Shown piece by piece: positions 7,491 through 52,660 of a stretch of DNA of 52,660 bases. Numbering within the stretch: the first letter of the stretch is position 1; each line of letters opens with the position of its first letter. The DNA lies in contig CAYYQC010000001.1 of NCBI GenBank assembly GCA_964473715.1, positions 3,953 through 56,612 on the forward strand, read 5' to 3'. This DNA comes from an uncultured Gammaproteobacteria bacterium (GTDB taxonomy: Bacteria; Patescibacteriota; Patescibacteriia; Magasanikbacterales; UBA922). The notes under the pieces are model-generated. The model did no database searches, was not told the origin of the DNA, and saw only the letters and a list, made by a program, of their open reading frames with translations. The position numbers were made by a program, and so were the translations under genes.

Positions 7491-7562
7491 TAGCGCCAAG
7501 GGGAATTGAACCCCTGTTTGGTGGATGAGAACCACCTGTCCTAGCCACTAGACGATGGCGCC
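7491..7562 (-). tRNA. tRNA-Glu (CTC)
   Basis: Hand-folded 72-nt cloverleaf GGCGCCA-TC-GTCT-AGTGGCTA-GGAC-A-GGTGG-TTCTCAT-CCACC-AAAC-AGGGG-TTCAATT-CCCCT-TGGCGCT-A. The 4-nt variable loop and D arm are typical of tRNA-Glu. It has a G1-U72 pair and no encoded CCA. Confidence 0.87.
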
Positions 7563-32502: not shown

Positions 32503-33191
32503 TCTTGAATAATAAAGCGAATCATTCGAAAACCGAGTTTAGCAGCCTTATCAAGTTTACCAGTAATTTTTGATTCCCCAATTCGCTCACCATAATGCAC
32601 GGGAATTTCTACCATAGGAATTCCAGCTGACAAAACACGAATCATAAATTCTGGAGAAAAATGTGACCCAGCCACAGTAAATTTGTCTTGAATTTTCAAA
32701 AGTGCGTCACGGTGAATGAGTTTAAAAGTACAACCAACATCAGTTAAGGTAGTTCCGCGGAATAAACAACCAAGTAATTTGGCTACCACTATATTTCCCA
32801 TGCGGAGTAACCAACCCATGTTAGCACCGGCGCCCACCAATGACCGTGCCGTTCGCGTACCAATTACCACAGGAAAATCTAAAGAATAGATTAGTAATTT
32901 TTCCAAATCGCGCGCAGAAAAAGTACCATCTGGCTCCACAGTTACTATCAAATCGCCAGTCGCCTCGCGCATACCACGCTGCAAAGCCGCGCCATATCCT
33001 TGGCGAGTTTCAAATACATAAGTAGCTTTCGAGGCTTTAATTTCTGTACTACTCCCATCTTTGGAATTATTATCTACAGCCACAATTTCATCTACCAAGC
33101 CGGTGGCAAAAAATTCCTCAATCGCTTTACGAATATTTTTTTCTTCATTATAAACCGGAAAAACCACGCTCACTTTTTTTCCCTGATACAT
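32466..33191 (-). CDS. GT2 glycosyltransferase (Dpm1/GtrB/ArnC-like polyprenol-phosphate sugar synthase)
   Basis: FPVYNEEKNI, VAVDNNSKDGS and VEPDGT (DxD-equivalent) motifs; 241 aa. Confidence 0.83.
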   Translation of the reverse strand: MYQGKKVSVVFPVYNEEKNIRKAIEEFFATGLVDEIVAVDNNSKDGSSTEIKASKATYVFETRQGYGAALQRGMREATGDLIVTVEPDGTFSARDLEKLLIYSLDFPVVIGTRTARSLVGAGANMGWLLRMGNIVVAKLLGCLFRGTTLTDVGCTFKLIHRDALLKIQDKFTVAGSHFSPEFMIRVLSAGIPMVEIPVHYGERIGESKITGKLDKAAKLGFRMIRFIIQEWFVWKTKKTQS

Positions 33192-37472: not shown

Positions 37473-38584
37473 ACTTTTTTTTGAAAAAGTTCCCCCATGC
37501 GTACACTCACTTTTTTCCAATTAAATTCGGCCAAAACTAAATCATGTGCATTTTGAATCACTGCTTTTTTAAGTGCTTCATCTGCTTGCACACGTTTCAC
37601 AGCTTCAGCAATTGATTCAGGATTATGTGGCTCGCACAAATATCCTGTTTTTCCTTCATGCAAAAAATCAGGAATTCCACCCACTGGTGTACCAATTACC
37701 GGCACATTCACAGCCATAGCTTCTAAAAAAGCATTTCCTAAACCTTCAGATAAACTTGGTCTGCAAAAAATATCTGCTTCACGCAAATATTCTGGTAATT
37801 CTTTATAATCCACAGTTCCCAAAAAATGCACTTGTTTAGATTTACCAATATTGTCAGCCAAATTTTTAAGTTCAGTTTCCAAAGGCCCGCTTCCAGCTAA
37901 AACCAACTGAGTATTGGCAGGTAAAAATTTCAAAGCTGAAATTAAATCAGCAATCCCATTTTTCGGTACTAACCGCGACACAGACATAATCATCACATCT
38001 TCAGCGCGCAATCCCAATTGCGTTCGCAACCAGCCATGTGTTTTAGTAAACGTGTAATCAAAGAAAAATTCTGGTACACCATTTGGAATCACGGAAATAT
38101 TTTTTCCCCCCAACTGTTTGGCCCAATCAGCTAAGTAATTACTAATAGTTTGAATCGCGTTAGCGCGCGTAAAAATTTGTTTAAACCAGGGCCAGCACCA
38201 CCATACCCGCGCGTATATATGCGCAAAAGAATCTCCTTCTTGCAAAGTCAAGAGATATGGCACGGCAGGATTTTTCTTTTTAAAAAATAAAGCCGCAAAC
38301 CCAGCATAACTAGCCATAATAGACCAAATTGCTTTTGGTTTATAAGTAGCGGCCACTTTTGGGCCACTAAAAATCAGGCGAATTTTATCCCACGCATTTC
38401 CTATCCCAATCCGATGAATCAGGACATTTCCTTGCTCCTCAATTTCTGGAAGATCTGCGCGCAAGCGAGCAGTAATGACAATAAAATTAGTTTCAGGGAG
38501 ACGACTAGTAATTTCCCGCACTGCGACTTCAGCTCCACCAACCAAGGGAAAATAGGCAGTGGAAAAAATCAGAATCGGCTCCAT
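37469..38584 (-). CDS. GT4-family glycosyltransferase
   Basis: SEGLGNAFLEAMAVNVPVI motif; 371 aa. Confidence 0.84.
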   Translation of the reverse strand: MEPILIFSTAYFPLVGGAEVAVREITSRLPETNFIVITARLRADLPEIEEQGNVLIHRIGIGNAWDKIRLIFSGPKVAATYKPKAIWSIMASYAGFAALFFKKKNPAVPYLLTLQEGDSFAHIYARVWWCWPWFKQIFTRANAIQTISNYLADWAKQLGGKNISVIPNGVPEFFFDYTFTKTHGWLRTQLGLRAEDVMIMSVSRLVPKNGIADLISALKFLPANTQLVLAGSGPLETELKNLADNIGKSKQVHFLGTVDYKELPEYLREADIFCRPSLSEGLGNAFLEAMAVNVPVIGTPVGGIPDFLHEGKTGYLCEPHNPESIAEAVKRVQADEALKKAVIQNAHDLVLAEFNWKKVSVRMGELFQKKV

Positions 38585-39842: not shown

Positions 39843-41909
39843 TTACTGTTTTGTACTGCTCGTAATGGCCGGTAAACCAGCTGCTTCACGTAACCGCGCA
39901 GAGCTTGGGTCATTAAATATCAAACCTGCTCTTTCGCCGCGTAAAAATACTTCTTTAGCACCAGCAACATCCCCTTCTTCCAAATATACACCAGCTAAAC
40001 GCCACCAACCATCTGGAGTTTTTGGACTATGCGCCAAAGTGGTTTCCAAAGCTTCTTTGGCACCTTTATAATCCCGCTCATATAAACGAGATATTGAAAG
40101 CACGTAATATAATTGTTGGCGTTTTGGAGACTTAGTAATCGCATCTTCCATCAGCGCTTTACTTTCTTCAATATAGGCCGGGTTACCAGTTATTTGCGCA
40201 CCTACCAAAGCCAACTGTGCTTCCTGAATATGATAGCGCACATCTAGTGGATGTAATTCACGATTCTTTTTAATTTCTTCGTAAGCAAACGTAAATAATT
40301 TCAAAGTATTTTCCCGGCCATAAATAGAAACCATACCCTGTACCTGACCTTCTGTCATGCGAGCAAAATCCATTCGGTTATCATCAATATGAGGAGTACC
40401 CATTTTATCCATGTCTTTATACTGTGTAATTAGCGAATCAATTAATTTAGCGTCACGATACTGAGTAATCGTGGATAATGATTGCAAAATTTTCCAGGTC
40501 GCACTATTTGCTTTGGCAGGCTTAGTATCAGTGGCATAAATAATTAATAGCATGCACACCATAATTACTGGCATGGCCCAGCCTGGCAAATTTTTAGCAC
40601 GACTTACTTCACCTTTTTCTAGCACCATGGCTGGTGCCGCAATCATAGCCAGCACAAAGTAGAAGTATAGATAAGAAGTAAGATTTTCAAACACAAAAAT
40701 ATTTTGCACCAAGTGCCCAACCAAGAATGACAGAAAGAAAATCATCGTGGACTGTGGTATTTTTCCTGCACGCCAATTTTTCACTGCCAAAGTTGCGGCT
40801 GCACCAAATATTCCAATATAGATAAGCAAACCAAAGGCTCCCTGCACAGTCAAAGTATTGAGCAAAATATTATGCGCATTATCAAACCAAGTTTCAGCCC
40901 AACCACCAATTTCCAAAAATTCTGGACGGTAATTTTGGTTGAATACATAGGCATAATTATTTGGCCCCCAACCAAAGAATGGTTTTTGCTTCCAGCCTTC
41001 AATCGCAATTTCCCAAGCCATCAAACGTGTACTTACAGTTCCACCACTAATACTTACAGTAGCCAACCGACCAATCACTGGAATACTATCCACAAAAGCC
41101 GTATGTCTAAAAGAAAACAAAACTGCAATCAGCACTATGCCACCAAGCATTACTCCGCCCAATGTTTTGCGGATTGGTAGCGAAACTTTTTTACTAAAAG
41201 TAACCAAAAGCAAAGCCATGCCAACAGCTGCCAATAAACCCAAGAAAGGTCCACGACTATCACTTAAGAAAATTCCCACCACACCAAACAAAGCGGCAAT
41301 ACCTCCAAACCATTGTTGCCATTTTTCTTTTGGAGTGGAAGAAAAAACTAGCCAAGCCCCCAGTGCGGCCATAAAAAATCCAAGCGCACCCAAATAAATT
41401 GGATTACCTAGGGTTCCGCCAACACGTACACTACCGTGATTATACAAAAAATCTGTATTAAACTTTTGTATGACACCAATCAGCATGATAAATATCCCAG
41501 TACCAGCAAACCACATGGAAAGGTTCCGCCACTCTTCACGCGTTTTAATTACCGCACTCAAGATAATAAAGAATAAGATGTAGTGCGCAAAAGTAAATAA
41601 ACCAAGCATGCGTTCATGTCCGTCCCACATACTGCGGTATGGATCTGCACCAACATAAGTAGAAATCACCCAAGAAACAAAAAATAAACCAATGGCTCCA
41701 CTTACCCAGTTCAAGCGTGGTTTATATTTTTGCCAATCCATGGCCAATAATCCAGCATAACACCCAGTCATGAGCAAAACCGTAGTTCTAAACCAAATGG
41801 CTTTTGGAAATACAAAAGGGAAAATTTGTGACTCTGGTCTAATAATCAAAGCTGAAAAAAAAGCCACTACAGTTAGCCAAAATATACTCTTTTCTAAAAA
41901 CCGATTCAT
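39843..41909 (-). CDS. Wzy_C (O-antigen ligase/polymerase-like) membrane protein with a C-terminal TPR domain
   Basis: 688 aa, polytopic. Wzy_C signature SDSRGPFLGLL...FDNAHNILLNTLTVQGAFGL. The C-terminal 200 or so residues have TPR-like repeats (YKGAKEALETTLAHSPKTPDGWWRLAGVYLEEGDVAGAKE). Confidence 0.8.
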   Translation of the reverse strand: MNRFLEKSIFWLTVVAFFSALIIRPESQIFPFVFPKAIWFRTTVLLMTGCYAGLLAMDWQKYKPRLNWVSGAIGLFFVSWVISTYVGADPYRSMWDGHERMLGLFTFAHYILFFIILSAVIKTREEWRNLSMWFAGTGIFIMLIGVIQKFNTDFLYNHGSVRVGGTLGNPIYLGALGFFMAALGAWLVFSSTPKEKWQQWFGGIAALFGVVGIFLSDSRGPFLGLLAAVGMALLLVTFSKKVSLPIRKTLGGVMLGGIVLIAVLFSFRHTAFVDSIPVIGRLATVSISGGTVSTRLMAWEIAIEGWKQKPFFGWGPNNYAYVFNQNYRPEFLEIGGWAETWFDNAHNILLNTLTVQGAFGLLIYIGIFGAAATLAVKNWRAGKIPQSTMIFFLSFLVGHLVQNIFVFENLTSYLYFYFVLAMIAAPAMVLEKGEVSRAKNLPGWAMPVIMVCMLLIIYATDTKPAKANSATWKILQSLSTITQYRDAKLIDSLITQYKDMDKMGTPHIDDNRMDFARMTEGQVQGMVSIYGRENTLKLFTFAYEEIKKNRELHPLDVRYHIQEAQLALVGAQITGNPAYIEESKALMEDAITKSPKRQQLYYVLSISRLYERDYKGAKEALETTLAHSPKTPDGWWRLAGVYLEEGDVAGAKEVFLRGERAGLIFNDPSSARLREAAGLPAITSSTKQ

Positions 41910-41964
41910 AAAATATTCACATTAATTACAGGCCCAGTATAGCCTATTCAATTAGGCTTGTAAA

Positions 41965-41997
41965 CAAAAACCCTCCCGATAAATCGGGAGGGTTTTG
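41965..41997 (-). terminator. intrinsic terminator of the large surface-protein gene
   Basis: The minus strand reads AAAACCCTCCCGATTTATCGGGAGGGTTTTTG: a 10-bp GC-rich stem plus a T-run. Confidence 0.78.
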
Positions 41998-42007
41998 TCT
42001 AACAAAG

Positions 42008-42039
42008 CTCAGTTAACCCGAAGGTTAAATCAAGCTGAG
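42008..42039 (-). other. second stem-loop immediately 3' of the surface-protein stop codon
   Basis: TTAACC (42013-42018) / GGTTAA (42023-42028) with a 4-nt loop, extended by a CTCAG/CTGAG outer helix. Confidence 0.4.
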
Positions 42040-42040
42040 A

Positions 42041-45000
42041 TTAGAGAGAGCGAGACAAGGTAGAACCTACAACATCATAAGAGTCTGATGCAGTAAATGG
42101 ACCAAGTTCACTTGTTGAGTTAACTGGAGTGTAGTAGTAAGCTAATACGCCAGTTGCCCAAGCAGAGTCAGTAAGGTTGTATCCAGTAGCACCATCAAGC
42201 ATTGGACTTACAGTCACAACACCTGTTGTTTTACCATTGAGTACACCTGTAGTGTCAGCAGTCACGATAAAGGTACGTGAACCACCGGCTGGGATTGTGA
42301 AGTTGTTCAATGCTGAACCGTTCTGGCCCATGGTACCAAGGGTAACAGAGATAGAACTTGTTGAAGCAGAGAAGTAACAACCTGCGGTGTTTTGGTTACC
42401 AACAACCAATGAACATGAGCTTGAAGTGGTCAAAAGTTGACCCTTGCTGCCCTGTGCATTAGATTCCCACAACTTGAATGTGTTGAGGGTACCACTTACG
42501 GTGTTGTTACCAGTCATACCACTGGCTGAGATCTTCACAGTTGTACTACCAAGGCGCAATTCGCGATCGCCAGGGTTGTAAACAGTATACTTGAAGATTG
42601 GGGCTTCAGAACCCAATTCCAAACTTGAACCAAGGCTCACAGGAGTGATCACTGGTGCAGTGTTGTGGAAAAGGTGAGCAGTTGAAGAAGCAATTGTGCC
42701 TCCAACTTGGCCGTCGCCAGCCAAACCATCAAGTTGAGAACCACTCAAAGTACCACCTGAACTGGAAACCAATTCAAGGTTAGTACTTGAAGTACTGCGG
42801 AGAGCCAAGTAACTGATATTGCCTGGAGTCATTACGTTTGACGCATTAACAGCAGACTTAACTACCAAGAACTTGTAAGTATTAGCAGGAACAGTGAGGC
42901 TAAGACCAGTAAACTGAACATAACCATTACCTGTACCACCAATATATTGACCAGTTCCAACAGAAGTGTTCATGTCAGCTGAGTCATAGAGGAAGAAAGT
43001 ACCATAATCACTACTTGTAGTGTTTGTAGAACCATCTTTACCAAAATGTACTGAGAAGGTGATCTTTTTCAAGGTCACAGCTTCGTTCTGAGCTTCCAAT
43101 TTCCACTTACCAACTTGAACTGGAGTTGCACTTGGAACCAAAATACTATTGGTTGTAGTGTTGTCATTAGCAGCACTGAGGATTACGTTAGCAGATCCTA
43201 CAGTGAAGTCTTGACCAACAACAGCAGAGTTGTCAGAGTCTGTATTCTGAGTATCAGCACCTACAAATGTGTAAGAAGCGATACTTGAAGACGCAACACC
43301 TGAAGCGTTAGAAAGAATCAAAGCTTTAAGTTTAATAACTTTAACTTCGTTCTTTTTAACAGTGATATTACTCAAGAAACTGTTTGATGAAGTAGCGGCA
43401 GTAGATACGGTTGAACCGTATTGTTCGTTACCAACCCACAATTCCAAGTTCTGGAGCATTGAAGGTGTATCGAATGTGCCGTTGCCAAGGAAACTAACAC
43501 TGAAGTTAGTAAGCTTAACATCTTCAGCAGAGCCAGCCTTAATGGTATATTGACCGATCACTTGGCTTGAGCCAGCAGCGAGGGTGTTGTTACCAAGAGT
43601 ACTGTCTTTAGCCAAAGTTACTTCAGTTGATTCAACAGCAACAGTGTTAGCAGCAGTCAAAGTGCTACCAGGGATGTTGTCTGTGAAGTCAAGAGTAGAC
43701 AAACGTTTTGCATACATGTTACCAACACTTACAGTGAAGGCTGAAACAGAGGTAGCAGATGTAGGAATACTACCGAGTACTTCCAATACTTTTGTTTCAC
43801 CAGACTTGAGGTTCAAGTATTGTGACAATGTGTATTGAGTTGAAGTACTGTTATACAAAGTGTAAGTACTGTCTGAAGCACTAGTAGTCAAAAGGATGTC
43901 GTTACCAACACGCAATTTAACTGAACCAGTCAATTCTTTTTTACCTACAGCGTATGTAGTAGTAGCAATCTTCAAACCGATCTTGCGAACTTCAAGATCT
44001 TCACCAACAGCTTTTACGTTAAAGCGGGCCAAGACAATATCATTGCCACCAGCTGAAACAGATGTTGAAGGAGAATCTGTAGTCTTAGATACAGTTACGG
44101 TACCGGACTTCATTTTGAAGTAACCAGCAGAAGATGAAACAGCTGAGAATGAAGTGGTTGAACCTTCACTAGTAGCACCAATGAAGTAACCTGTACTTGT
44201 ATCCTTAACCATTACATCGTAGTCATTCTGAACTTGAATACGGAACCAGTTGCCTGAACCATCGGCCACAGTGGCACGGAGGGTCAAAACACGGTTTGTA
44301 CTCTTAGGAACAGTGTATGGCTTGTCAAAGTTAACAGTTACGTAGCGATCAGACATCATTTCTGTGCGACCGAGAACTGTGTTATCTGGAGCGAGAACTT
44401 CAAAATTCTTGAGGTCTTCGTCCTTAGCAGTTCCTTGTACGTAGAAAGTAATTTTACTTACTTGGATATCACTATCACCATCGTATTGGATGAACTTGAA
44501 TTTGGAGATTTCTTGTGTCTGACCAATTTCAAGGTTACCAGCAGTACTACTGCCTGGTTCTGTACTCAAACCACCAGCTGAAACACTTCCGAGTTGTACA
44601 TCAGCGACAGAGCCGCCAGATACCAAACTCATGGTGTTACCAGAAACTGGGAATGAACCACTTACAGTACCGTCAGTTTGCACATCAGCCGCAGAAGCGA
44701 TTGAAGCACCAACTGTGCCTGAAGTAGCAGTTGTAGCTAAGTTAAAGGCTACAGTGAAAGAAGTTGTTTGGCCTTTAGCAACTACGATTGGGTAGGTACC
44801 AAAACCAATAGTAACTTTGTTGTCTGAGCTAAATGAGCTCATAACATCACCGTGGCGGTTGCCAGCTGAATCCCAAACACTTACGCCACTAATGTTAGCA
44901 TTAGTTACGAGACCAGTGCGGGTTACAGTTACACCTTTCAATTTAACATCACCGTTAGTAGCAGTAACAGTCACTTTAAGCATGTTGTTGTAAACAGTGC

Positions 45001-45808
45001 CTGCAGCGATTGTAGATGCAGCTGCTGTATCAGCAGCCAAACCAACAGTCAAAACACCGTTAGATGTAGGAGTTGTTGGAACACTACCACCACTCAATTG
45101 TGATGGGTTGTTTACGATAGTAGCAGCAGTAACTGATCCAGAACTCAAAGATACTGAGGAGAATACAGTTGCTGAAACAGTGCGTACATCGTTAACAGCC
45201 TGTGTTGGGAGAGCTCCGTCTACCATTTTGAGAGCATTGTCCCAAACGTAGTAAACAGTAGATTCACCAGCCTTCTTTACCAATTGACCATTGTGGAGGG
45301 TGTTGCCTACGAGAGGAGCACCAACCTGGTAGTTGGAATCAAAGACATCGTTAAGATGAGTAACGAGAGTTGGCCAGTTGGCTCCGTAAAGAGCAACAGC
45401 TTGTGCTTCGTTGTCAATCTTGTGCTTCATGTTGTTTGGACCTACAGCGTAAACTGAAGGAGAGAGGAAACTCTTTACCAAACGTGAACCTGGACGGAAG
45501 TTAACACCACCACCAGCGGCGTAAGCGTCAACACAAGACATGTCAATGGTAGTAATACCACTGAAATCCTTGTACCAGGATTTATATACGGCTTCTGTTG
45601 GGAAGTACATCCGTTTATTCTGACTGTTTACCAAGTAAACAGCAGCATTTCCGGCTACTTTGAACAAGTCTCCGGCTTCGAGCTCTGGACATGTAGCGGC
45701 AGCAGCACCGGCTGGAACAAAGGCTGAAAGGCCAACGCTCCAAGCAACAGTCATGCTAACCACTGACATGGTGAAGAGTTTCTTACCGAATTTCTTCAAA
45801 TTTTGCAT
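42041..45808 (-). CDS. large secreted Ser/Thr/Gly/Val-rich repeat protein, candidate S-layer or cell-surface protein
   Basis: 1255 aa. Signal peptide MQNLKKFGKKLFTMSVVSMTVAWSVGLSAFVPAGAAAA. Long series of beta-strand-like modules of the type G..V.L..F.[VI].A...D[VI].[VL]..[IL].F, and only four Cys. Codon choice differs from the neighbouring genes (many GGT/ACC/GTT/AAC), consistent with high expression. Confidence 0.8.
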   Translation of the reverse strand: MQNLKKFGKKLFTMSVVSMTVAWSVGLSAFVPAGAAAATCPELEAGDLFKVAGNAAVYLVNSQNKRMYFPTEAVYKSWYKDFSGITTIDMSCVDAYAAGGGVNFRPGSRLVKSFLSPSVYAVGPNNMKHKIDNEAQAVALYGANWPTLVTHLNDVFDSNYQVGAPLVGNTLHNGQLVKKAGESTVYYVWDNALKMVDGALPTQAVNDVRTVSATVFSSVSLSSGSVTAATIVNNPSQLSGGSVPTTPTSNGVLTVGLAADTAAASTIAAGTVYNNMLKVTVTATNGDVKLKGVTVTRTGLVTNANISGVSVWDSAGNRHGDVMSSFSSDNKVTIGFGTYPIVVAKGQTTSFTVAFNLATTATSGTVGASIASAADVQTDGTVSGSFPVSGNTMSLVSGGSVADVQLGSVSAGGLSTEPGSSTAGNLEIGQTQEISKFKFIQYDGDSDIQVSKITFYVQGTAKDEDLKNFEVLAPDNTVLGRTEMMSDRYVTVNFDKPYTVPKSTNRVLTLRATVADGSGNWFRIQVQNDYDVMVKDTSTGYFIGATSEGSTTSFSAVSSSAGYFKMKSGTVTVSKTTDSPSTSVSAGGNDIVLARFNVKAVGEDLEVRKIGLKIATTTYAVGKKELTGSVKLRVGNDILLTTSASDSTYTLYNSTSTQYTLSQYLNLKSGETKVLEVLGSIPTSATSVSAFTVSVGNMYAKRLSTLDFTDNIPGSTLTAANTVAVESTEVTLAKDSTLGNNTLAAGSSQVIGQYTIKAGSAEDVKLTNFSVSFLGNGTFDTPSMLQNLELWVGNEQYGSTVSTAATSSNSFLSNITVKKNEVKVIKLKALILSNASGVASSSIASYTFVGADTQNTDSDNSAVVGQDFTVGSANVILSAANDNTTTNSILVPSATPVQVGKWKLEAQNEAVTLKKITFSVHFGKDGSTNTTSSDYGTFFLYDSADMNTSVGTGQYIGGTGNGYVQFTGLSLTVPANTYKFLVVKSAVNASNVMTPGNISYLALRSTSSTNLELVSSSGGTLSGSQLDGLAGDGQVGGTIASSTAHLFHNTAPVITPVSLGSSLELGSEAPIFKYTVYNPGDRELRLGSTTVKISASGMTGNNTVSGTLNTFKLWESNAQGSKGQLLTTSSSCSLVVGNQNTAGCYFSASTSSISVTLGTMGQNGSALNNFTIPAGGSRTFIVTADTTGVLNGKTTGVVTVSPMLDGATGYNLTDSAWATGVLAYYYTPVNSTSELGPFTASDSYDVVGSTLSRSL

Positions 45809-45825
45809 AAATAATTTTTCGCCTA

Positions 45826-45864
45826 TTACGCGACGCCTCGTTCCATTGGAACCGGTCCGCGTAA
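45826..45864 (-). promoter_or_regulatory. composite hairpin in the 5' leader, ending 17 nt upstream of the surface-protein start codon
   Basis: The minus strand reads TTACGCGGACCGGTTCCAATGGAACGAGGCGTCGCGTAA: an outer 8-bp helix (TTACGCGG/TCGCGTAA with one G-U pair) and an inner GTTCC-AAT-GGAAC helix. Confidence 0.45.
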
Positions 45865-45970
45865 TAAGTTTTTTTATTAAAGCCGCATCACTCCACTTCC
45901 TTTACGGAAATGGATCAACCTTTCGGTGAGCGGAATGCTTTGGCCTCATTGGCATGTGGCCAGAAGCGAA

Positions 45971-46004
45971 CTCACTCTCCTCTTTATAATAAAGAAAGAG
46001 TGAG
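45971..46004 (-). terminator. 34-nt near-perfect inverted repeat downstream of the anti-sigma gene (possible operon terminator)
   Basis: The minus strand reads CTCACTCTTTCTTTATTATAAAGAGGAGAGTGAG: about 16 bp with one wobble pair and one bulge. An 8-bp hairpin GGCCATACAGTATACGGCC precedes it. Only a weak U-run follows. Confidence 0.45.
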
Positions 46005-46072
46005 GCCGTATACTGTATGGCCCGCACCAGACTAATTATAATCAGGTACGGATCAGACACTATACACTACAA

Positions 46073-47290
46073 TTACTTTTTCACGTCAACTTGAACCTGA
46101 TCAGTCTGCGCTTTGGTTTTTGTATCTACCAATGACTGTTGCGCAGAAGCTGCGTTTTGATTTAAATCTTTTAGATTTTTCAAAGCCTCTTCTAAATTAT
46201 TAGAATCAATATTTTTCTTAATCTCTACTGCAGAATTATTTACCACCAATGTTTTCGCATCAGCTTCTTTAATTAAGTCACTCGCAGTAGTTGTGGATGT
46301 AGATGACAAAGCTTTTTCCAAACTATCAGTTTTTTGATTAGTAGTTGGCAAAATTGTACTACGGGTAGTTGAAACAGAAAGATCAATAAGTTTAGTAGTA
46401 CTAGAAGAAAGCATTTGCATAGGCACCCCCAAAGTATTTTTTACATCATTTTTAATTGCTTCAGTAGATTGAACCAAGTCAACAACTTTTTCTGAAACAA
46501 TATTTTTGACATCATTTGGCTCGCCAGTTCGTACGACTGTTTCTACCGCTGAGATGCTTGTTTCATTAACTAATTTAATAGTTTCAATCACTTGCTTAGT
46601 TACTTCTACATTAGCCAGAGTAGAAGAAGCCACCGTTGAGTTTAATTCTTTAACCAAAACTGTTGTGTCTTTGGCCACACCTTTGGCAGTTTCTACAACT
46701 TCAACCGCATTTTCTTTTGTAGCAGAATCTTTAGCTTGAACATTTACATTTACAGAAACTTCTTTAACTGCATCTTGCACATCTTTTACAGCCACGCTCA
46801 AATCTTTTTCTGCTTTAGCCCGGTCATCAGGATCTGATTCTACTGCTAATTTTTGTGAGACAGTTTTTTTAATATCATCTACCCGGCTCTTGGCCAAGTT
46901 TAATTGTAATTGTACTTTTTCATTTTCCGTGGCACCAATACTTTTTACAGCCACTTCAGTTTTTTGAGCTACACGTTTAATGGCCCACAAACGGTCACCA
47001 GGCAGACTATTAAAGGAGGCACTCACACTAGCAATCCAACCACCAGTAGCCAACAAAGCCACAGTAAGAGCAGTTAAGGTAGGACGCAATAAACGAATAG
47101 TAGAGCTAGAACGTAAGTGATACCAAAGTGCGCGCGCAGTGTCCACCACCACAGGTTTTGCCACTGGCACAACAGTATTACTAATTTGTTGCACCATCCG
47201 AGCACGCTCTGAAACAACCCAAGCCTGGTCAGGATTAACCTGACTTTGAGAAAGCTTGATTGTTTTCAGTTGTTCCTTAAGGTGCTTCAT
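46073..47290 (-). CDS. membrane-anchored DUF5667-type protein, candidate anti-sigma factor
   Basis: 405 aa. Cytoplasmic N-terminus, one TM (LTALTVALLATGGWIASV), then SLPGDRLWAIKRVAQKTEVAV (the DUF5667-like P-G-D-x-L-x-x-x-K-R pattern) and a long low-complexity V/K/T/E-rich tail. It overlaps the upstream ECF sigma gene by 14 nt. Confidence 0.62.
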   Translation of the reverse strand: MKHLKEQLKTIKLSQSQVNPDQAWVVSERARMVQQISNTVVPVAKPVVVDTARALWYHLRSSSTIRLLRPTLTALTVALLATGGWIASVSASFNSLPGDRLWAIKRVAQKTEVAVKSIGATENEKVQLQLNLAKSRVDDIKKTVSQKLAVESDPDDRAKAEKDLSVAVKDVQDAVKEVSVNVNVQAKDSATKENAVEVVETAKGVAKDTTVLVKELNSTVASSTLANVEVTKQVIETIKLVNETSISAVETVVRTGEPNDVKNIVSEKVVDLVQSTEAIKNDVKNTLGVPMQMLSSSTTKLIDLSVSTTRSTILPTTNQKTDSLEKALSSTSTTTASDLIKEADAKTLVVNNSAVEIKKNIDSNNLEEALKNLKDLNQNAASAQQSLVDTKTKAQTDQVQVDVKK

Positions 47291-47846
47291 AATTACGCAT
47301 TGCTTTTTTTAAAATGTTGGTGGCTCTGTGTAATGTGACCCGAACATTTACTGGAGATTTTTTTATTATTTGTGCAATTTCTTTTATAGAAAGTTCTTCA
47401 ATATATCGTAGCAAGATAACTTCTTGATATTCTTGCTTCATTTGTCGTACTTGTTTTAGGAGCACTTTGGCACTTTCTGTAACCATGAGATTGGCCACCA
47501 TATTATCAACACCCGCAATCTCTTCCACATCTGGCGCAGCTTCTAGAGAAAACTCTGGTCGGTTGGCTTTGGCCCTGTACCAGTCTACCAAACTATTTCT
47601 AGCGATTTGATAAATGAGACCACTGAAACTTTTTATTTCTACATCTGTTTTTTCAGCCAAATACTGCCAGGTTTTCAGAAACACCTCACTGGTCAAGTCT
47701 TCAGACTCTTCTTTCCGATTTACCTTAAAAAATATGAACCGATAAATCCGACCCACGTACAAATCGTACAGACAAGCAAAAGCTTCAGGGTCGTGATTTT
47801 TAGTCACTTGGTAAACCAGTTTTTTTTCAGAGAGGCTGGTGGGCAT
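47277..47846 (-). CDS. ECF-type sigma-70 family RNA polymerase sigma factor
   Basis: Region 2 (IYRFIFFKVNRKEESEDLTSEVFLKTWQY) and region 4 HTH (ELSIKEIAQIIKKSPVNVRVTLHRATNILKK). Start ATG 47846 is preferred; the track start at 47891 would add 15 non-conserved residues. Confidence 0.86.
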   Translation of the reverse strand: MPTSLSEKKLVYQVTKNHDPEAFACLYDLYVGRIYRFIFFKVNRKEESEDLTSEVFLKTWQYLAEKTDVEIKSFSGLIYQIARNSLVDWYRAKANRPEFSLEAAPDVEEIAGVDNMVANLMVTESAKVLLKQVRQMKQEYQEVILLRYIEELSIKEIAQIIKKSPVNVRVTLHRATNILKKAMRNYEAP

Positions 47847-47853
47847 ACTAGAA

Positions 47854-47879
47854 GACGTCCTGAATAAAAAAGTGTTACA
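47854..47879 (-). promoter_or_regulatory. candidate ECF-type autoregulatory promoter TGTAAC-N16-CGTC
   Basis: The minus strand has TGTAAC (plus-strand 47874-47879), a 16-nt spacer, then CGTC (plus-strand 47854-47857), ending 7 nt before ATG 47846. This resembles the AAC-N16/17-CGT architecture of ECF promoters. Confidence 0.25.
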
Positions 47880-48118
47880 CCTGTGGAACACTTTTACATA
47901 TTTATGTTACCAACACTATACCTTATCTAAGCCAAAAAAACAACCTTCACGGCTCATAATCAAGTTATTTAGTGGTTTCAAGAAAAAGGATATAGTTACT
48001 CCATATGCGACCAGGTCCCATTTTTAGGACTTTGACAATAGTAATGAAGAGCCCAGATATGTATACACTAATATATACATTATAAATAAACCAATTTTCA
48101 GACTTTATTCCTTGCCCA

Positions 48119-48147
48119 TTGACAAAACCCTAAAAATTTGTTAATAT
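48119..48147 (+). promoter_or_regulatory. sigma70 promoter TTGACA-N17-TAATAT for the HTH gene
   Basis: TTGACA at 48119-48124, a 17-nt spacer, then TAATAT at 48142-48147. Confidence 0.55.
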
Positions 48148-48224
48148 ATGTCTATACAAAAATCAAAAAATTAATAACCGCCGCGTCTCAAAGGACGTTA
48201 CGCGGCACGATTTCGACAAATCGT

Positions 48225-48572
48225 ATGGAACAAAACCTCCAAAAAGAAATACAATCTATTGACCCAGCCAACTCTACACCAGCCAAAGAAGTAATTAGAG
48301 TATCAATCTCTGAAGCCGCTCGGCTCTTTGGGGTAAATCCTCAAACTATTCGCCGCGCTCTCAAAGACCAAGAAATCAATTATGTGGTCGTAGCTGGACG
48401 TTATAAGCTCAACTTTGAAAGTCTAGTTAAGTGGTCACAGCGCAAAACCACGGTTCGGAACAAATCCAACCAAAGTGGTATTGGACAATATGTGGATAAA
48501 TGGAAAATTAATAACACTTTATACTCCCCTAGCTCCAAACTTCTAAAGCCAGAGGAACCACCGCAAACATAA
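48225..48572 (+). CDS. helix-turn-helix (excisionase/MerR-like HTH_17) DNA-binding protein
   Basis: VSISEAARLFGVNPQTIRRALKDQEINYVVVAGRYKLNFESLVKW is a typical HTH_17 segment. The start was moved to ATG 48225, downstream of the promoter. A 7-bp hairpin ACGATTT-CGAC-AAATCGT abuts the start codon. Confidence 0.68.
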   Translation: MEQNLQKEIQSIDPANSTPAKEVIRVSISEAARLFGVNPQTIRRALKDQEINYVVVAGRYKLNFESLVKWSQRKTTVRNKSNQSGIGQYVDKWKINNTLYSPSSKLLKPEEPPQT

Positions 48573-48578
48573 ATTTAA

Positions 48579-48613
48579 AACTCTCCCCGACCAAATCGGG
48601 GAGAGTTTTTTGT
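48579..48613 (+). terminator. intrinsic terminator after the HTH gene
   Basis: ACTCTCCCCGA-CCAA-ATCGGGGAGAGT followed by TTTTTTG. Confidence 0.78.
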
Positions 48614-48638
48614 TAGCCTATGCTATACTTAAAAGGCT

Positions 48639-50468
48639 ATGAAATTTGTCTCTACACATCTTACTAAACATCATTTGTTACACGCTCCTCATCGCTGGTT
48701 TTTGGCTTTTTTGCTCTCACCTATTCACGCTCTAGAAGTACATTATCAACGCCGCTACCATCTTAAATTTTCTCATGCCCGCAAATTATTTATCTTTGAC
48801 ATGCTTCTTTTGATAAGCATTTTTGTCATTGGAGGAAGTGCAGCTTTTTGGTATACCTATGACCCTACTGTAACCAAAGACGTAGCCCTTGAAGTTTCTG
48901 CGGCCGCACTTGGGGACACCAATCGAGTAAAAAGTGGTGAACTCATTACTGTAAAAATCTCTTTTCAGAACAATAGTAATGTAGTACTAGAAGACCCAAT
49001 TATTAAAGTAAATATTCCCGCTGGTTTTCTTATTCGCAGCACTCCACCTAATTTTACCACTTCCACCCAATCAATTTCAGTTGAAAGCATGAAGCCACGT
49101 CAAGGCGGAGAGCTAATCTTTACAGGTCAATTTTTTGGTGAACCAGGCAAAAATTTTCCGGCCGTAGTAGAGCTTATTTATCGCCAAGAAAAAACCAATC
49201 GGTTTGAAGTTAAAACCGTGGGCATATTAGCTACCCCTGCGGATTCAGTTCTGGTAGTGAATGCTAATTTTCCTGCTACTATTTTTTCTTCAGGAAATTG
49301 GGAAGTGCCGGTCACTATTCAAAATACTGGCTCTGAATTAATCTCAGGAATTTCTATTCCTTTCCCGACTGTAAATGGTTTAAATTTTTCTTGGCTTGAA
49401 ACTGGGATTACCAAAAAACCTTTATTGATTTCTTTACTCAAACCAAATGAAACTACTACTGGTACCTTACGTTTTTCCAGTAAATTACCAAAAGATATTT
49501 CTGAAATTTCTGTTTCCTTAATTCCTCAAATTCAAATTAATAATCAGTATTTTAACCAAGCCGCATTTAATTCTAAAATTTCCGTACTCCACCCTGGTTT
49601 AAAAATTTCTTCTGAATGGAAACAATCAATTGTTCAGCCTGGCGAGAGTGTGCCATTACATATTAAAGTAGAAAATACTGGTAGTGTAGAACTTAATAAT
49701 CTTACCCTAGCCATTCCTTTACCAGCGAACTTAGTTAATGTACGTGAAACTGCCACAACCAATAAAGCCACACTTAAAGGATCAACCCTATATATTTCTG
49801 CCAAAGAATTTCCGGCTTTAAATTCTATTCCGCGTCAAGAAACTCGCGAACTACCATTAACTATTATAATTTCTAACCGTCCTAGCGGTAGTACTGAACT
49901 TAGTTTACCAATTAGTGCTTCAAGTAATATTGTTAATAATCCAGAAAAGTTTGAAACAAAATCTATTACTTCACCAATTAAACTAGGTACTTTTATTAGT
50001 TTAAATGCTGAGTCCCACTATTATTCTACTGAAGGTGACCAAATTGGTCGTGGACCATTGCCTCCAAAAGTTGGCAAAGAAACCAAATATTGGGCTTTAT
50101 TAATTCTGAACAATGGCACTGCTGAAGCTTCTAATGTGTCTGTTTCTGCTACTTTAGCCCCTGGAGTTACCTGGACTAGTAAATCTAGTGTGACACGTGG
50201 ACGCGAACCTGTTTACAATCCATCAACACGTACAATTACTTGGAATGTTTCATCTGTCCCTGCCAGTGAAACAGTTGGTATTGACTTTGAATTAAGTATT
50301 ACTCCTACTGAATCACAGCGGGGTTCCATCCCTGTTTTGCTTACAAATATTCGTGCTTCGGCTGTGGATAGTATTACTAATAAAAATCTCACTGCTTCAG
50401 CAGGATCTTTAAATGCTTCACTTGTTACAGACACAATTGGCAAAGCCAAAGGCGTGCGCGTGGAATAA
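48639..50468 (+). CDS. membrane-anchored protein with four CARDB/DUF11-like beta-sandwich repeats
   Basis: 609 aa. TM helix LLLISIFVIGGSAAFWY, then repeats with the pattern x-V-x-I-x-N-x-G-x-x-x-L-x-N-[VL]: ITVKISFQNNSNVVLEDPIIKVNIPAGF, VPVTIQNTGSELISGISIPFP, VPLHIKVENTGSVELNNLTLAIPLPANL and ALLILNNGTAEASNVSVSATLAPGV. Confidence 0.7.
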   Translation: MKFVSTHLTKHHLLHAPHRWFLAFLLSPIHALEVHYQRRYHLKFSHARKLFIFDMLLLISIFVIGGSAAFWYTYDPTVTKDVALEVSAAALGDTNRVKSGELITVKISFQNNSNVVLEDPIIKVNIPAGFLIRSTPPNFTTSTQSISVESMKPRQGGELIFTGQFFGEPGKNFPAVVELIYRQEKTNRFEVKTVGILATPADSVLVVNANFPATIFSSGNWEVPVTIQNTGSELISGISIPFPTVNGLNFSWLETGITKKPLLISLLKPNETTTGTLRFSSKLPKDISEISVSLIPQIQINNQYFNQAAFNSKISVLHPGLKISSEWKQSIVQPGESVPLHIKVENTGSVELNNLTLAIPLPANLVNVRETATTNKATLKGSTLYISAKEFPALNSIPRQETRELPLTIIISNRPSGSTELSLPISASSNIVNNPEKFETKSITSPIKLGTFISLNAESHYYSTEGDQIGRGPLPPKVGKETKYWALLILNNGTAEASNVSVSATLAPGVTWTSKSSVTRGREPVYNPSTRTITWNVSSVPASETVGIDFELSITPTESQRGSIPVLLTNIRASAVDSITNKNLTASAGSLNASLVTDTIGKAKGVRVE

Positions 50469-50494
50469 GTTTTCCTCTTCGGCGAGCATTATAA

Positions 50495-50524
50495 AAAATC
50501 TTCTATTAAAGAAGATTTTTTGCT
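50495..50524 (+). terminator. intrinsic terminator
   Basis: AAAATCTTC-TATTAAA-GAAGATTTT followed by TTTGC. Confidence 0.7.
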
Positions 50525-50536
50525 TTAAAATAAGGA

Positions 50537-50565
50537 TTGACTTTTTGCTTAATACCTGATATAGT
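50537..50565 (+). promoter_or_regulatory. sigma70 promoter TTGACT-N17-TATAGT, about 220 nt upstream of the GC-rich Cys-repeat gene
   Basis: TTGACT at 50537-50542, a 17-nt spacer, then TATAGT at 50560-50565. Confidence 0.5.
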
Positions 50566-50656
50566 GTTCTGTTTCTATATCTTGGGATTATTAGGTATAG
50601 TAAGCAATAGCTCTTTACAATTGAGGTGGTATTTTAGTTTACATCAAAGAAGGAGA

Positions 50657-50712
50657 CGAAACTGCTTCAGATTTTGGTTATATTTATGTAATTAAAATCT
50701 GGAGTAGTTTCG
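50657..50712 (+). ncRNA. 25-bp strand-specific RNA hairpin in the leader of the Cys-repeat gene
   Basis: CGAAACTGCTTCAGATTTTGGTTAT (50657-50681), loop ATTTAT, GTAATTAAAATCTGGAGTAGTTTCG (50688-50712). All five non-Watson-Crick positions are G-U pairs on the plus-strand RNA and would be A-C mismatches on the minus strand. Confidence 0.55.
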
Positions 50713-50784
50713 AAGTAATTACAATTCCGAGAAGTACATCTCTAGACCAATTACCGGACCACAGATGGTCCAAGGAGAATTCGC

Positions 50785-52660
50785 GTGAAGAATTTCATGA
50801 ACTGCGTCGTCGTTTTCGTGATCACCCTCTTCACCGTCCTCAGCTGTGCTGAGGACACCTCCACCCCGCCCTTCGGGAAGGCCTGCGTGGCCGACTCCCA
50901 ATGTGGAGCCTGGGCCGGGTACTGGGTCTCCTGTGTGCAAGGGGTGTGCCAATACCCCCTGACATCTGCGGACATTCAGGACATGACCGATGTTCAGGTG
51001 GAGCGGGAGTGCCAGACTGACAACGAATGCCAGGATGGCAACTTCTGCAACGGCAACGAGCTGTGCGACCAAGATGGTTACTGTCAGAACTCCAAGTTCA
51101 TTCAGTGCCCAGAAGTACTCTGTGATACGAAGGCAAACAAATGCCTGCCGTGTACAGATGCTCTCTGCGAAGACGGGTCGCCCTGCACGACGCAGTACTG
51201 TGACTTTGAACTTAAGGATTGTGTCTTCGCCATGGCCGAGAACCACTGTCTTATTGGCTCAGGCTGCTATGAAGCAGGTGAGTCCGATTACCAGGACGTG
51301 TGTAAGGTCTGCGACCCTGCCTCTCCTGAAGAGTGGAGTGAAAGCTCTGCTCCTGAGTGCAAGGTCTTCGAAGATGTGATCGACACTGACACCAGAACTG
51401 ACCTAGAGACCGTAGATTCCGACATCTCCGAAACGCCGGATGAGTTCACTCCTCCGGACACGGAGGAAGTCGAAGAACCCGACGCCGAGGAAACGGCTGA
51501 CTCTGAAGAACCTTTGGATGTGACCGAGCCTCCGCCTGATGAAGGCGAAGATATCGGTGAACCCGAAGACATCCCAGAGCCATCTGAAGACATCATTATC
51601 GAAGACGCCGGGGACAACCCGGATATCGAAGAACCCGACGTCACCGTCGACCTCTGCAAAGAGCTCAACTGCGACGACGACAACGGATGTACCAACGACT
51701 CATGTGACCCACTCTCGGGTTGCAAGTACGCCTTCAACTCCAAACCCTGTAACGCAGACGGAAACGACTGCACCCAAGGAGATTTCTGCTCGCAAGGTAC
51801 CTGCCAAGCAGGTCCAAACCTCTGCGAGTGCGAGAAGGACAGCGATTGTTCTTCTCACGAAGATGGCGACCTTTGCAACGGAACTTTGGTGTGCTCTGCG
51901 CACCACTGCATCCTTGCTCCGGAAACCAAAATCGTGTGTGAAACATCCGTCGCTGATCAATGTCACCAAGTGCTCTGCATTCCGTCGTCTGGCGATTGCG
52001 TTCTTGCGAACAGCTTGAACAACATTGTCTGCAACGACGCCTCGCTTTGCACCACGGACGACACTTGTTTCGCCGGTCTCTGCACTGGCAAGCAGGTGGA
52101 CTGCGACGACAACAACGGATGTACCAACGATTCATGTGACGCCCAGATCGGGTGTCACCACGAACTCAACTCTAACCCATGTACGGACAACGACGTCTGT
52201 ACGATCGGAGACATCTGCTCGCAAGGCGTTTGCCAAGCGGGCGAAACCCAAAAAGTCTGCACAGACGATGATTTGTGTACGGATAACTCCTGCGACGCAG
52301 AAACCGGGTGCAAGAGCACTCCGACGAACTGCGATGACAGCGACCCGTGCACTACTGACGCTTGCGATCCGGCAACGGGCTGCGAGCACACCGGCGTCAC
52401 GTGCGCCGAAACCGACGACAACGTCTGCACCACGGCCACCTGCGACCCCAATTCCGGGGAATGCATCAATCTCCCTCCACCAGAGGAAGAGGTCGTGTTC
52501 TGCGAAGACGACAACACCTGTACTTTCAATGACACCTGTCTCGGCAGTGTCTGCGAAGGTACTCCCATTCTCTGTTCGGATGACTTCGCGTGTACTTCTG
52601 ATTCATGTGACCCTGCCTTGGGTTGCATCTACACGCCGATCGATTCGGCGTGCAACGACA
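50785..52660 (+). CDS. cysteine-rich repeat lipoprotein with an acidic Pro/Glu/Asp linker; 3' end lies beyond the window
   Basis: Not in the ORF track because it is open at the window edge. GTG 50785 lies 7 nt after AAGGAG (50772-50777), an in-frame ATG is at 50797, and the upstream in-frame stop is TAG 50743-50745. Hand translation: (M)KNFMNCVVVFVITLFTVLSCAEDTSTPPFGKACVADSQCG..., a signal peptide plus lipobox-like VLSC. This is followed by C-x-D-x-N-x-C-T-x-D-x-C-D-x-x-x-G-C modules, and the frame stays open for 625 codons. The region is GC-rich (one 60-nt line counts 65%). Confidence 0.82.
   Translation, partial: MKNFMNCVVVFVITLFTVLSCAEDTSTPPFGKACVADSQCGAWAGYWVSCVQGVCQYPLTSADIQDMTDVQVERECQTDNECQDGNFCNGNELCDQDGYCQNSKFIQCPEVLCDTKANKCLPCTDALCEDGSPCTTQYCDFELKDCVFAMAENHCLIGSGCYEAGESDYQDVCKVCDPASPEEWSESSAPECKVFEDVIDTDTRTDLETVDSDISETPDEFTPPDTEEVEEPDAEETADSEEPLDVTEPPPDEGEDIGEPEDIPEPSEDIIIEDAGDNPDIEEPDVTVDLCKELNCDDDNGCTNDSCDPLSGCKYAFNSKPCNADGNDCTQGDFCSQGTCQAGPNLCECEKDSDCSSHEDGDLCNGTLVCSAHHCILAPETKIVCETSVADQCHQVLCIPSSGDCVLANSLNNIVCNDASLCTTDDTCFAGLCTGKQVDCDDNNGCTNDSCDAQIGCHHELNSNPCTDNDVCTIGDICSQGVCQAGETQKVCTDDDLCTDNSCDAETGCKSTPTNCDDSDPCTTDACDPATGCEHTGVTCAETDDNVCTTATCDPNSGECINLPPPEEEVVFCEDDNTCTFNDTCLGSVCEGTPILCSDDFACTSDSCDPALGCIYTPIDSACND
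51670..51813 (+). repeat. internal repeat A of the Cys-repeat gene (48 codons)
   Basis: CDDDNGCTNDSCDPLSGCKYAFNSKPCNADGNDCTQGDFCSQGTCQAG. The nucleotide string tgcgacgacgacaacggatgtaccaacgactcatgtgac recurs 432 nt downstream. Confidence 0.8.
52102..52242 (+). repeat. internal repeat B of the Cys-repeat gene (47 codons)
   Basis: CDDNNGCTNDSCDAQIGCHHELNSNPCTDNDVCTIGDICSQGVCQAG. It is in the same frame as repeat A, offset by 432 nt (144 codons). Confidence 0.8.

Follow-up and report, generated by a model that had tools for sequence, protein, structure and literature searches.

A GC-rich gene for a cysteine-rich repeat protein with an exchangeable head at a conserved locus of Candidatus Magasanikbacteria

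The target gene, its product and its orthologs

The DNA analyzed here (the window) is a 52,660-nt stretch of contig CAYYQC010000001.1 in assembly GCA_964473715.1, and its right-hand end carries a GC-rich gene, hereafter the target gene, that encodes a cysteine-rich repeat protein predicted to be a surface lipoprotein (Table 1). Frame +1 is free of stop codons from the GTG at 50785-50787 through base 52660, the end of the window (625 codons), and the GTG follows the Shine-Dalgarno (SD) sequence AAGGAG after a 7-nt spacer, AATTCGC. By a rough estimate, an open run of this length has a probability of 0.96^625 ~ 1e-11, far beyond chance, and the starts of the orthologous proteins coincide with that of the window gene (M/V-K-N-F). 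The mechanical list of open reading frames (ORFs) omits those that run off the window end, and the ORFs that it does hold across the gene are antisense or lie in another forward frame (those at 50990 and 51539 are each shifted by +1 from the frame of 50785). The original prediction had read the 625-codon frame behind AAGGAG in the same way and had regarded the listed ORFs as shadows; both statements agreed with our analysis. The gene is genuine and chromosomal, its first three quarters lying at 50785-52660. Orthologs of 834-842 aa continue past that point, so that ~217 residues lie beyond the window, and the 3' end of the window copy is placed by orthology.

The mean GC content of the window is ~40%, whereas that of the target gene is 55.5%. 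Measured over 200-nt segments, the GC content of the leader is 28-36% and that of the gene 52-62%, with an abrupt change at 50.75-50.8 kb. A jump at this point had been predicted and is real, although the size given for it (32% to 65%) was too large; the same segments place it at ~30% to ~55-60%. GC content at third codon positions (GC3) is 0.658 in the target gene vs. 0.23-0.38 in each of 38 other window genes, third-position C is 0.47 vs. a background of 0.14, and first and second positions (GC1, GC2) differ far less. Because the excess sits in GC3, the jump is an effect of codon usage, and amino-acid composition was ruled out as its cause.

The predicted product begins with MKNFMNCVVVFVITLFTVLS-C21, in which a basic n-region and a hydrophobic h-region are followed by a lipobox, the sequence pattern of bacterial lipoproteins. 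It fits the PROSITE-type lipobox rule (PS51257), [LVI][ASTVI..][GAS]-C within approximately the first 35 residues. Cys21 is invariant and a small residue at -1 is conserved in the six orthologs, the other lipobox variants being AISC, LSGC, SLSC, AAAC, and LSGC, which bears out the signal peptide and lipobox-like VLSC of the original prediction. The protein is thus most likely exported and lipid-anchored via Cys21. No match to the Lgt or LspA families was found among the 36 window ORFs scanned against Pfam. The Cys-rich head and the tandem C-x-D-x-N-x-C-T-x-D-x-C-x4-G-C modules described at first reading were likewise recovered, the latter being the Pfam repeat Dicty_CTDC (PF00526). The window protein scores 62.4 bits against this family (E = 3.2e-17; gathering cut-off, 27) over five stretches, and four orthologs score 77.7-86.3 bits, also above the cut-off. 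The resulting rod consists of ~10 modules of 24-26 aa, each with four Cys, and an insert module of 67 aa (aa 349-415); the listing for aa 296-625 comprises nine C[TS]x(1,2)DxC cores and 10 modules. The module Cys are invariant in a 54-sequence alignment, and an internal 432-nt duplication of higher order appears as direct repeats at 51656-51751 and 52088-52183. An AlphaFold2 (AF2) model has a predicted local distance difference test (pLDDT) score of 85-96 in the rod, with one β-hairpin pair per module, and of 33-40 in the acidic segment. Overall, the protein is extremely acidic (D+E, 22%; K+R, 3%) and is predicted to be rich in disulfides.

The additional ~217 aa of the orthologs comprise more modules, thrombospondin (TSP) type-3 repeats, and a Cys-containing C-terminal tail. 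Residues 667-743 of one ortholog (P0001) matched the type-3 repeats of COMP and TSP-1/-2 with E = 6e-11 to 1e-6 (5.7e-11 against 3fby), and a Pfam scan of the orthologs gave no TSP_3 match at E <= 0.01. By its sequence, this part is predicted to bind calcium. On reaching the window end, contigs of three wastewater runs jump back by 55 positions (52606-52660) after 23 intervening letters, so that the next downstream module is a near-copy of the last module of the window; this tandem repeat may have caused the contig to end at 52660.

Other searches returned little. No family was found at E <= 0.01 in NCBIfam for the window protein, although that collection presumably includes the Myxococcus cysteine-rich repeat model TIGR02232, none was found in PHROGs for P0001, and the literature yielded nothing on the Dicty_CTDC repeat in the candidate phyla radiation (CPR). 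A phmmer search of aa 1-295 against 1.84 billion cluster representatives gave only three full-length matches and 90 further matches to sub-modules (aa ~73-125 and ~120-192). These head sub-modules recur in larger Cys-rich proteins, with up to 35 matched stretches per protein; the whole protein is therefore built from modules of one broad Cys-rich family. In the same set of cluster representatives, no protein outside the six orthologs combined a lipobox, variable head, and acidic block. A profile search with a five-sequence head alignment gave no matches, though true orthologs sit in the database searched, and this negative is uninformative. In sum, the repeat family is known; its host and the architecture are new.

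Table 1. Features of the target gene and of its surroundings, in window coordinates.
Feature	Position	Strand	Remarks
AT-rich hairpin and T-run, AAAAAATCTTCT-ATTAA-AGAAGATTTTTT	50493-50521	+	Read from sequence
Sigma-70-type promoter, TTGACT, 17-nt spacer, TG-extended TATAGT	50537-50565	+	Promoter scan, 10 of 12 matches
Structured 5' leader, ~210 nt	50573-50784	+	Presumed transcription start
Leader hairpin	50575-50600	+	Predicted fold
Invariant leader block, TAGCTCTTTACAATTGAGGTGG	50608-50629	+	Alignment
Long leader hairpin	50658-50711	+	Predicted fold
Pre-SD hairpin	50756-50771	+	Abuts SD, 50772-50777
GTG start, predicted signal peptide and lipobox TVLS-C21 (aa 1-21)	50785-50847	+	Translation; Cys codon 50845-50847
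Conserved mature N-terminus, AEDTSTPPFGKAC (aa 22-34, PPFGxAC)	50848-50886	+	P28, P29, F30, G31, A33, C34 invariant
Hypervariable Cys-rich head (aa 35-205)	50887-51399	+	21 Cys; two Cys-module types
Acidic Pro-rich segment (aa 206-289)	51400-51651	+	Predicted disordered
Dicty_CTDC rod (aa 290-625)	51652-52660	+	Cut by window end; Pfam PF00526
HTH_17/excisionase-like gene, then gene for 609-aa DUF11-repeat protein	48138-50468	+	Directly upstream of target gene
Extracytoplasmic function (ECF) sigma factor	47277-47891	-	Overlaps start of 405-aa protein gene (region 46073-47891)
1255-aa protein	42041-45808	-	Signal peptide; rich in S/T/V/G/A (S 12.7%, T 12.0%); 97% identical in L001
Surface-glycan cluster	9701-41909		~30 kb; glycosyltransferases, sugar epimerases/dehydratases, methyltransferases, flippase
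tRNA-Met(CAT), tRNA-Glu(CTC)	7394-7562	-	Rfam gathering-score scan of whole window; no other Rfam families

A protein search identified three full-length relatives, P0001, P0002, and P0003, with 71, 51, and 50% identity, respectively, and later searches added P0024 and P0124; the six orthologs referred to here are the window copy and these five. Their contigs (L001, L002, L003, L080, and L083) come from five other assemblies in NCBI, Logan, and ENA. The gene order of the window is repeated in four of them, L003 being too short to show neighbors. One strand carries a large protein rich in S/T, a membrane protein of 405 aa, and the ECF sigma factor; the other carries the HTH_17 gene, a DUF11 protein of 609-616 aa (the window's own is not on record), and the target gene. 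Where contigs continue, these are followed by a response regulator, a histidine kinase, a ~635-aa protein, and a GT4 gene. In all five other assemblies, the target is a one-gene GC island, with GC3 of 0.57-0.64 vs. 0.22-0.42 in its neighbors (in L002, expressed as GC, 0.52-0.57 in the target vs. 0.36-0.43 around it), and AT-rich genes lie on both sides of it in the three contigs that extend past the gene (L001, L002, and L083). In addition, Logan contigs of four wastewater metagenome runs (X1-X4) span the junction between AT-rich and GC-rich DNA. Contig pieces of X3 are 100% identical to the window, including 50692-50842, and X1, X2, and X4 contain longer junction-spanning contigs. A metagenome scan with an invariant leader 20-mer returned solely the L001 contig.

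Conserved and exchanged segments

The hairpin listed first in Table 1, as judged from its sequence, probably terminates transcription of the DUF11 gene upstream. L001 aligns with an equivalent hairpin that bears changes on both sides, and a consensus terminator scan missed the window hairpin because its stem has few G-C pairs. Since the DUF11 gene probably ends there, the target gene would form its own transcription unit. All six loci have an identical -35 box, and their -10 boxes read TA[TG]AGT. From the promoter to ~50715 (~150 nt after the promoter), the window, L001, L002, and L003 are near-invariant, while the corresponding proteins are 50-75% identical. The leader is predicted to form four hairpins, with a minimum free energy of -63.6 kcal/mol and z = -5.4, and the long hairpin and the pre-SD hairpin keep pairs through changes on both sides. 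In L080 and L083, the promoter, the first 60-90 nt of the leader, and a pre-SD hairpin are kept and the long hairpin is missing; the leader is retained through GCTCTTTACAA in L080 and through the GAGGTGG block in L083. No Rfam 15 family matched this leader, the only hits being sub-threshold miRNA-like hairpins (best, 25 bits vs. a gathering score of 71). A leader peptide was ruled out, as the only candidate mini-ORF carries a 2-nt deletion in L002 and L003.

A second conserved block lies within the gene. The acidic segment contains 38 D/E and 13 P in 84 residues (61% D/E/P); the acidic, Pro-rich stretch of the original prediction is thus present, but its description as almost entirely Asp, Glu, and Pro was overstated. 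The term linker also proved inappropriate, as this segment is the best-conserved part of the protein, synonymous sites included. The run SETPDEFTPPDTEE..PLDVTEPPPDEGEDIGEPED is near-invariant, and the core (~51427-51565, ~140 nt) is conserved at both amino-acid and synonymous sites, being near-invariant in five of the six orthologs and weaker in P0124. Between distant pairs, identity at synonymous third positions is 0.83-0.86 in the core, compared with 0.30-0.74 in the rest of the gene. Relative to shuffled controls, the RNA of this block has a better fold (z = -3.9), and a few pairs of its predicted hairpins are kept through changes on both sides. Two explanations suggest themselves: the nucleotide sequence of the block may itself be functional, or recombination at the 3' boundary of the adjoining head may keep homogenizing it.

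The head shows the opposite pattern to these blocks. Between the window and L001, neighboring proteins are 92-97% identical, with synonymous divergence (dS) down to 0.07, and the target protein as a whole is 75% identical. The acidic part and the repeats each reach 86%, whereas the head reaches only 46%. Nonsynonymous divergence (dN) in the head is 0.50 and its dS is saturated, vs. a dS of 0.16-0.49 in the flanking parts of the gene, and the difference therefore represents an imported old allele and not fast local mutation. Similarly, P0001 and P0002 have heads that are 70% identical and repeat regions that are only 56% identical, so that head and body have different histories. Contigs of X1, X2, and X4 follow the window to 50810-50887 and then diverge in frame, and the 7.5-kb contig of X4 rejoins it at 51400. 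Nucleotide identity to L001 is 95% over 40827-47960 and 85% over 48059-50928, and the dS of neighboring genes against L001 rises stepwise toward the target gene (0.07, 0.33, and 0.51). Indels, together with a change of 50% of residues over 500 nt and substitutions of all kinds, separate the head alleles, and the head keeps all its cysteines. These results identify aa 35-205 as a swappable allele cassette.

Persistence of GC3, proposed origin and role

The high GC3 of the target gene has persisted for a long time. At codons for conserved amino acids, the class of the third base (strong, S, or weak, W) was retained between the window and L001 to the extent of 0.54 in the target gene vs. 0.53 in its neighbors, and between the window and L080 to 0.23 vs. 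0.24; turnover centers on a synonymous-site GC3 (GC3s) of 0.63 in the target and 0.26 in the neighbors. Compared with L083, the most distant ortholog, S/W states of the target are fully randomized (retained fraction, -0.02 to 0.06), and GC3s is still 0.57-0.67 in each lineage. Neutral amelioration, with decay rates calibrated on the neighbors, would require an ancestral GC3 of 0.92-1.06; one of the estimates is 0.99-1.06. A GC3 of 0.70-0.85 is already reached in the first 40 codons, right after a leader of 28-36% GC. Taken together, a GC3 of ~0.6 looks stationary and not like the fading signal of a transfer. Because the excess has lasted through saturating synonymous divergence, it is not a mark of recent arrival. 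GC-biased gene conversion was rejected as its main cause, as neighbors with raised divergence between the window and L001 keep a low GC3; the DUF11 gene has the highest dS of the neighbors (0.51) and the lowest GC3 (0.23).

A total of 860 homologs were found, and every named one outside the ortholog group is labeled as coming from Myxococcota, Deltaproteobacteria, "Pseudomonadota," or Candidatus Binatia metagenome-assembled genomes (MAGs). One homolog that was checked is compositionally native in a contig of 59% GC. The host of the window, in turn, is assigned by sequence to Candidatus Magasanikbacteria and is a low-GC bacterium of the CPR (Patescibacteria): its IF-2 (959-2983, minus strand) is 80-87% identical to that of Candidatus Magasanikbacteria MAGs. 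The view that the modules are typical of Myxococcota-type proteins and not of low-GC genomes is therefore in accord with the named homologs, the GC-rich contig, and the low-GC host. Probably, a single ancient transfer brought the gene into an ancestor of this Magasanikbacteria clade from a GC-rich, Myxococcota-like donor.

We consider it probable that the gene was acquired in this way and now encodes a variable, lipid-anchored surface adhesin or receptor, with GC3 held at an equilibrium of its own. According to this model, the family was acquired once, long ago, and has since been inherited at one fixed locus between the gene for the DUF11 surface protein and a two-component system. The gene would be transcribed from its own strong sigma-70-type promoter through the conserved, structured 5' leader, and the product would be exported and then lipid-anchored through Cys21. 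From its N-terminus, the mature protein would present the variable Cys-rich head, the disordered acidic/Pro segment, and the long, rigid Dicty_CTDC rod, followed past the window, by orthology, by calcium-binding TSP type-3 repeats and a small Cys-containing tail. Strains would swap the head by homologous recombination, and old, very different head alleles would circulate on near-identical backgrounds as a consequence, a pattern typical of proteins exposed at the surface on which a binding partner, host cell, or phage exerts frequency-dependent selection. The protein could thus serve an episymbiotic cell as an adhesin or receptor at its surface, stiffened by calcium. Its GC3 (~0.6 vs. ~0.27) would be maintained most plausibly by selection on mRNA or translation. 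Three features go beyond an ordinary island of horizontal gene transfer (HGT), namely, the exchangeability of the head, conservation of the leader and acidic block down to the nucleotide level, and the long-kept, foreign-looking codon composition.

Several observations weigh against this model. The variable head adjoins the membrane anchor and not the distal tip, which is unusual for an adhesin, and lipidation is itself a prediction from sequence. Where measurable, pairwise dN/dS in the head is 0.15-0.27, and hence there is no direct sign of positive selection but only of the exchange of old alleles. The direction of transfer is read from distribution and composition and not from a rooted tree. 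The argument for stationarity uses a two-state model and six sequences, with repeat alignments that may be partly out of register. Translational selection of the host's kind, as seen in the gene for the 1255-aa protein, explains only the two-fold, pyrimidine-ending (NNY) part of the codon bias of the target. Lastly, no RNA sequencing run was found to hold the gene sequence.

It is possible, although we regard it as unlikely, that the protein is not an adhesin but a structural or ion-binding component of the envelope, such as a calcium-binding acidic matrix or a cell-wall spacer, with a head that acts as a phage receptor or is weakly constrained. Its extreme acidity and TSP type-3 calcium repeats would suit such a function, as would a disordered acidic segment long enough to span the wall and a variable domain close to the membrane anchor. 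The gene is also situated among envelope genes (the DUF11 protein, the ECF sigma factor, and the large polysaccharide cluster). However, the retention of every head cysteine and the low dN/dS given above denote constraint, and the closest solved fold is that of a parasite adhesin.

It is doubtful that the high GC3 stems from translational selection of the ordinary kind in a gene with very high expression, in which case its composition would not be special. The C bias of the target is strongest in two-fold NNY codons (C-share, 0.73; AAC, 0.89; TTC, 0.94; CAC, 1.0; TAC, 0.88), and the gene for the 1255-aa S/T-rich secreted protein has an NNY C-share of 0.67 vs. 0.10-0.43 in all other genes except the target, indicating that the host favors NNC in some genes. 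A strong predicted promoter, a stabilizer-like leader, and a shift in composition exactly at the start codon point in the same direction. In contrast, four-fold codons of the 1255-aa gene still end mostly in A/T (C, 0.15; G, 0.02), whereas the target uses C at 0.40 and G at 0.25, with AAG at 0.69 vs. a background of 0.15. Since the NNY bias is common to both genes, part of the bias of the target, and so far only part, can be linked to expression. We tentatively suggest, as a minority view, that the GC3, the near-invariant structured leader, and the conserved ~140-nt intragenic block form one mRNA-level adaptation in which nucleotide composition itself is selected. If so, a GC-rich, structured, and long-lived message would let a ribosome-poor CPR cell make much of a variable host-contact protein.

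Recent horizontal acquisition, with a donor composition that has not yet ameliorated, is highly improbable. It would account for a GC3 of 0.66 in a genome of GC3 ~0.27 and for the concentration of homologs in GC-rich lineages. A scan of 185,579 GTDB species representatives, which include Magasanikbacteria with 80-87% IF-2 identity, also returned no ortholog; as the query consisted of two acidic-block peptide patterns only, that scan would miss diverged orthologs such as P0124. Against a recent arrival, there are six orthologs, five of them at one locus (L003 being too short to tell), among neighbors with a dS of 1.0-1.4 (window or L001 vs. L080) and with amino-acid identity down to 64-69% for some gene pairs. 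Moreover, the target is more diverged than its neighbors, its S/W states have been completely reshuffled between lineages without GC3 departing from ~0.6, and the starting GC3 would have to be at least 0.92-1.06.

Diversification of the head by a dedicated system, either a diversity-generating retroelement (DGR) or silent-cassette gene conversion as in pilin variation, is scarcely credible. CPR genomes are rich in DGRs, and strong nucleotide-level conservation marks the blocks that bound the variable region. However, no reverse-transcriptase family was matched among the 36 window ORFs scanned with Pfam (a set that excludes 32466-33191, 37469-38584, and ORFs of <100 aa), no silent head copies, template repeats, or GC-rich second copy occur within the 52.6-kb window, and the indels and 50% residue change over 500 nt are not adenine-specific changes. 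Finally, the suspicion that a Myxococcota-type fragment was joined to a CPR contig in assembly or binning, raised by the abrupt GC change and by a gene that runs off the contig end, is refuted as far as public data allow, since the junction, leader, and flanking genes recur in five other assemblies, AT-rich genes follow the 3' end of the gene in three of them, and contigs of four separate wastewater runs cross the junction, one run at full identity; the chimeric junction by which the original prediction could have been refuted is thus not borne out, and the gene is in this respect genuine.

CPR bacteria are thought to live attached to other cells, and few contact proteins are known from them. 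In Magasanikbacteria, a group common in wastewater, a rare, lineage-specific, allele-swapping protein that is predicted to be a surface lipoprotein is a concrete candidate for the recognition of hosts or phages. The locus also offers a clean natural test of amelioration theory. Foreign-looking composition is usually taken as evidence of recent transfer, and because that of the target gene persists through saturating divergence, composition-based dating or HGT calling would be wrong for it. The leader and intragenic block are candidates for RNA-level control in a phylum with almost no knowledge of gene regulation, and the high-confidence AF2 model provides a starting point for Dicty_CTDC, a repeat without a solved structure or assigned function.

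Genomic surroundings and comparison with known systems

The remaining content of the window is CPR-like and includes a pyrophosphatase, RNase Y, PBP2, a subtilase, and the polysaccharide/glycosyltransferase cluster, and the organism was detected in wastewater, sludge, sediment, and freshwater metagenomes, with the target locus present in at least 20 runs. Many MAGs among the GTDB representatives (L004, L007, L012, and others; IF-2 64-87% identical) are titled "uncultured Gammaproteobacteria bacterium," and these titles look like placeholder or wrong names. The surface-glycan cluster, which also has a Wzy-like ligase with TPR repeats and a glycosyltransferase of the PMT_2 family (dolichyl-phosphate-mannose-protein mannosyltransferase type), is a large outlay for a small genome. 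The tRNA-Glu(CTC) reads GAG only, so that a codon ending in G has a tRNA of its own in this AT-rich genome. The 1255-aa protein matched zero Pfam, NCBIfam, or PHROG families and, judging from its sequence, looks like a highly expressed S-layer-like surface protein. The 405-aa protein has a hydrophobic stretch near residues 70-90 and no family match; together with the ECF sigma factor it probably forms a sigma/anti-sigma pair, and this pair adjoins the target gene in every ortholog locus that reaches that far (L001, L080, and L083). The match of the HTH_17/excisionase-like gene is below curated cut-offs. For each pair of loci, the DUF11 gene is the most diverged of the neighbors compared, with 92% identity to L001 and 64-73% among more distant loci.

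Dicty_CTDC has been listed among the families without known structure (PMC8078820). The Dicty_CTDC proteins of Myxococcota and Deltaproteobacteria MAGs resemble the target protein in having a ~24-aa, four-Cys module in long tandem arrays, with 38-44% identity over the repeat half, and three of these relatives (P0004, P0007, and P0040) have the 67-aa "C-x-C..EDG-x-LCNGTL-x-C" insert module in common with it. They differ in that the target is encoded in a CPR genome of 40% GC, measures 834-842 aa vs. mostly 900-1100 aa, and possesses a lipobox, a variable head specific to its lineage, and an ultra-conserved acidic block. The best Foldseek match was the Cys-rich region of the Gal/GalNAc lectin heavy subunit of Entamoeba histolytica (PDB 9gjc and others; E = 6e-5, probability 0.98). 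Both appear as elongated, disulfide-stapled β-hairpin stalks, on the target side as an AF2 model. However, TM-scores are ~0.1 (as expected for flexible rods), identity is 14-18%, and the match is a eukaryotic type I membrane protein. We regard this modeled resemblance as one of local fold only, and as evidence neither of homology nor of lectin activity. The likeness to the type-3 repeats of TSP and COMP resides in the motif DxDxDGxxDxxDNC of P0001, in the region beyond the window end.

Leaders that stabilize mRNA at its 5' end are known for surface and crystal proteins of Gram-positive bacteria, as in S-layer genes and the STAB-SD of cryIIIA. Like these, the leader of the target gene is long, has a hairpin near its predicted 5' end, and bears SD-like sequences (GAGGTGG and AAGGAGA) without a start codon behind them. 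Unlike these, it has no sequence relationship to them, and its long hairpin is missing at two of the six loci. On this analogy, we hypothesize that the leader may act as an mRNA stabilizer.

The organization of the head is comparable to that of flagellin, pilin, and O-antigen-type loci, even though the protein belongs to an unrelated family, its variable part is N-terminal beside the anchor, and the window contains no silent cassettes. In those loci, conserved ends enclose a recombining, hypervariable middle; the target gene likewise combines old, divergent alleles with near-identical backgrounds, its variable segment yields a phylogeny unlike that of the rest of the gene, and flanking divergence rises toward the locus.

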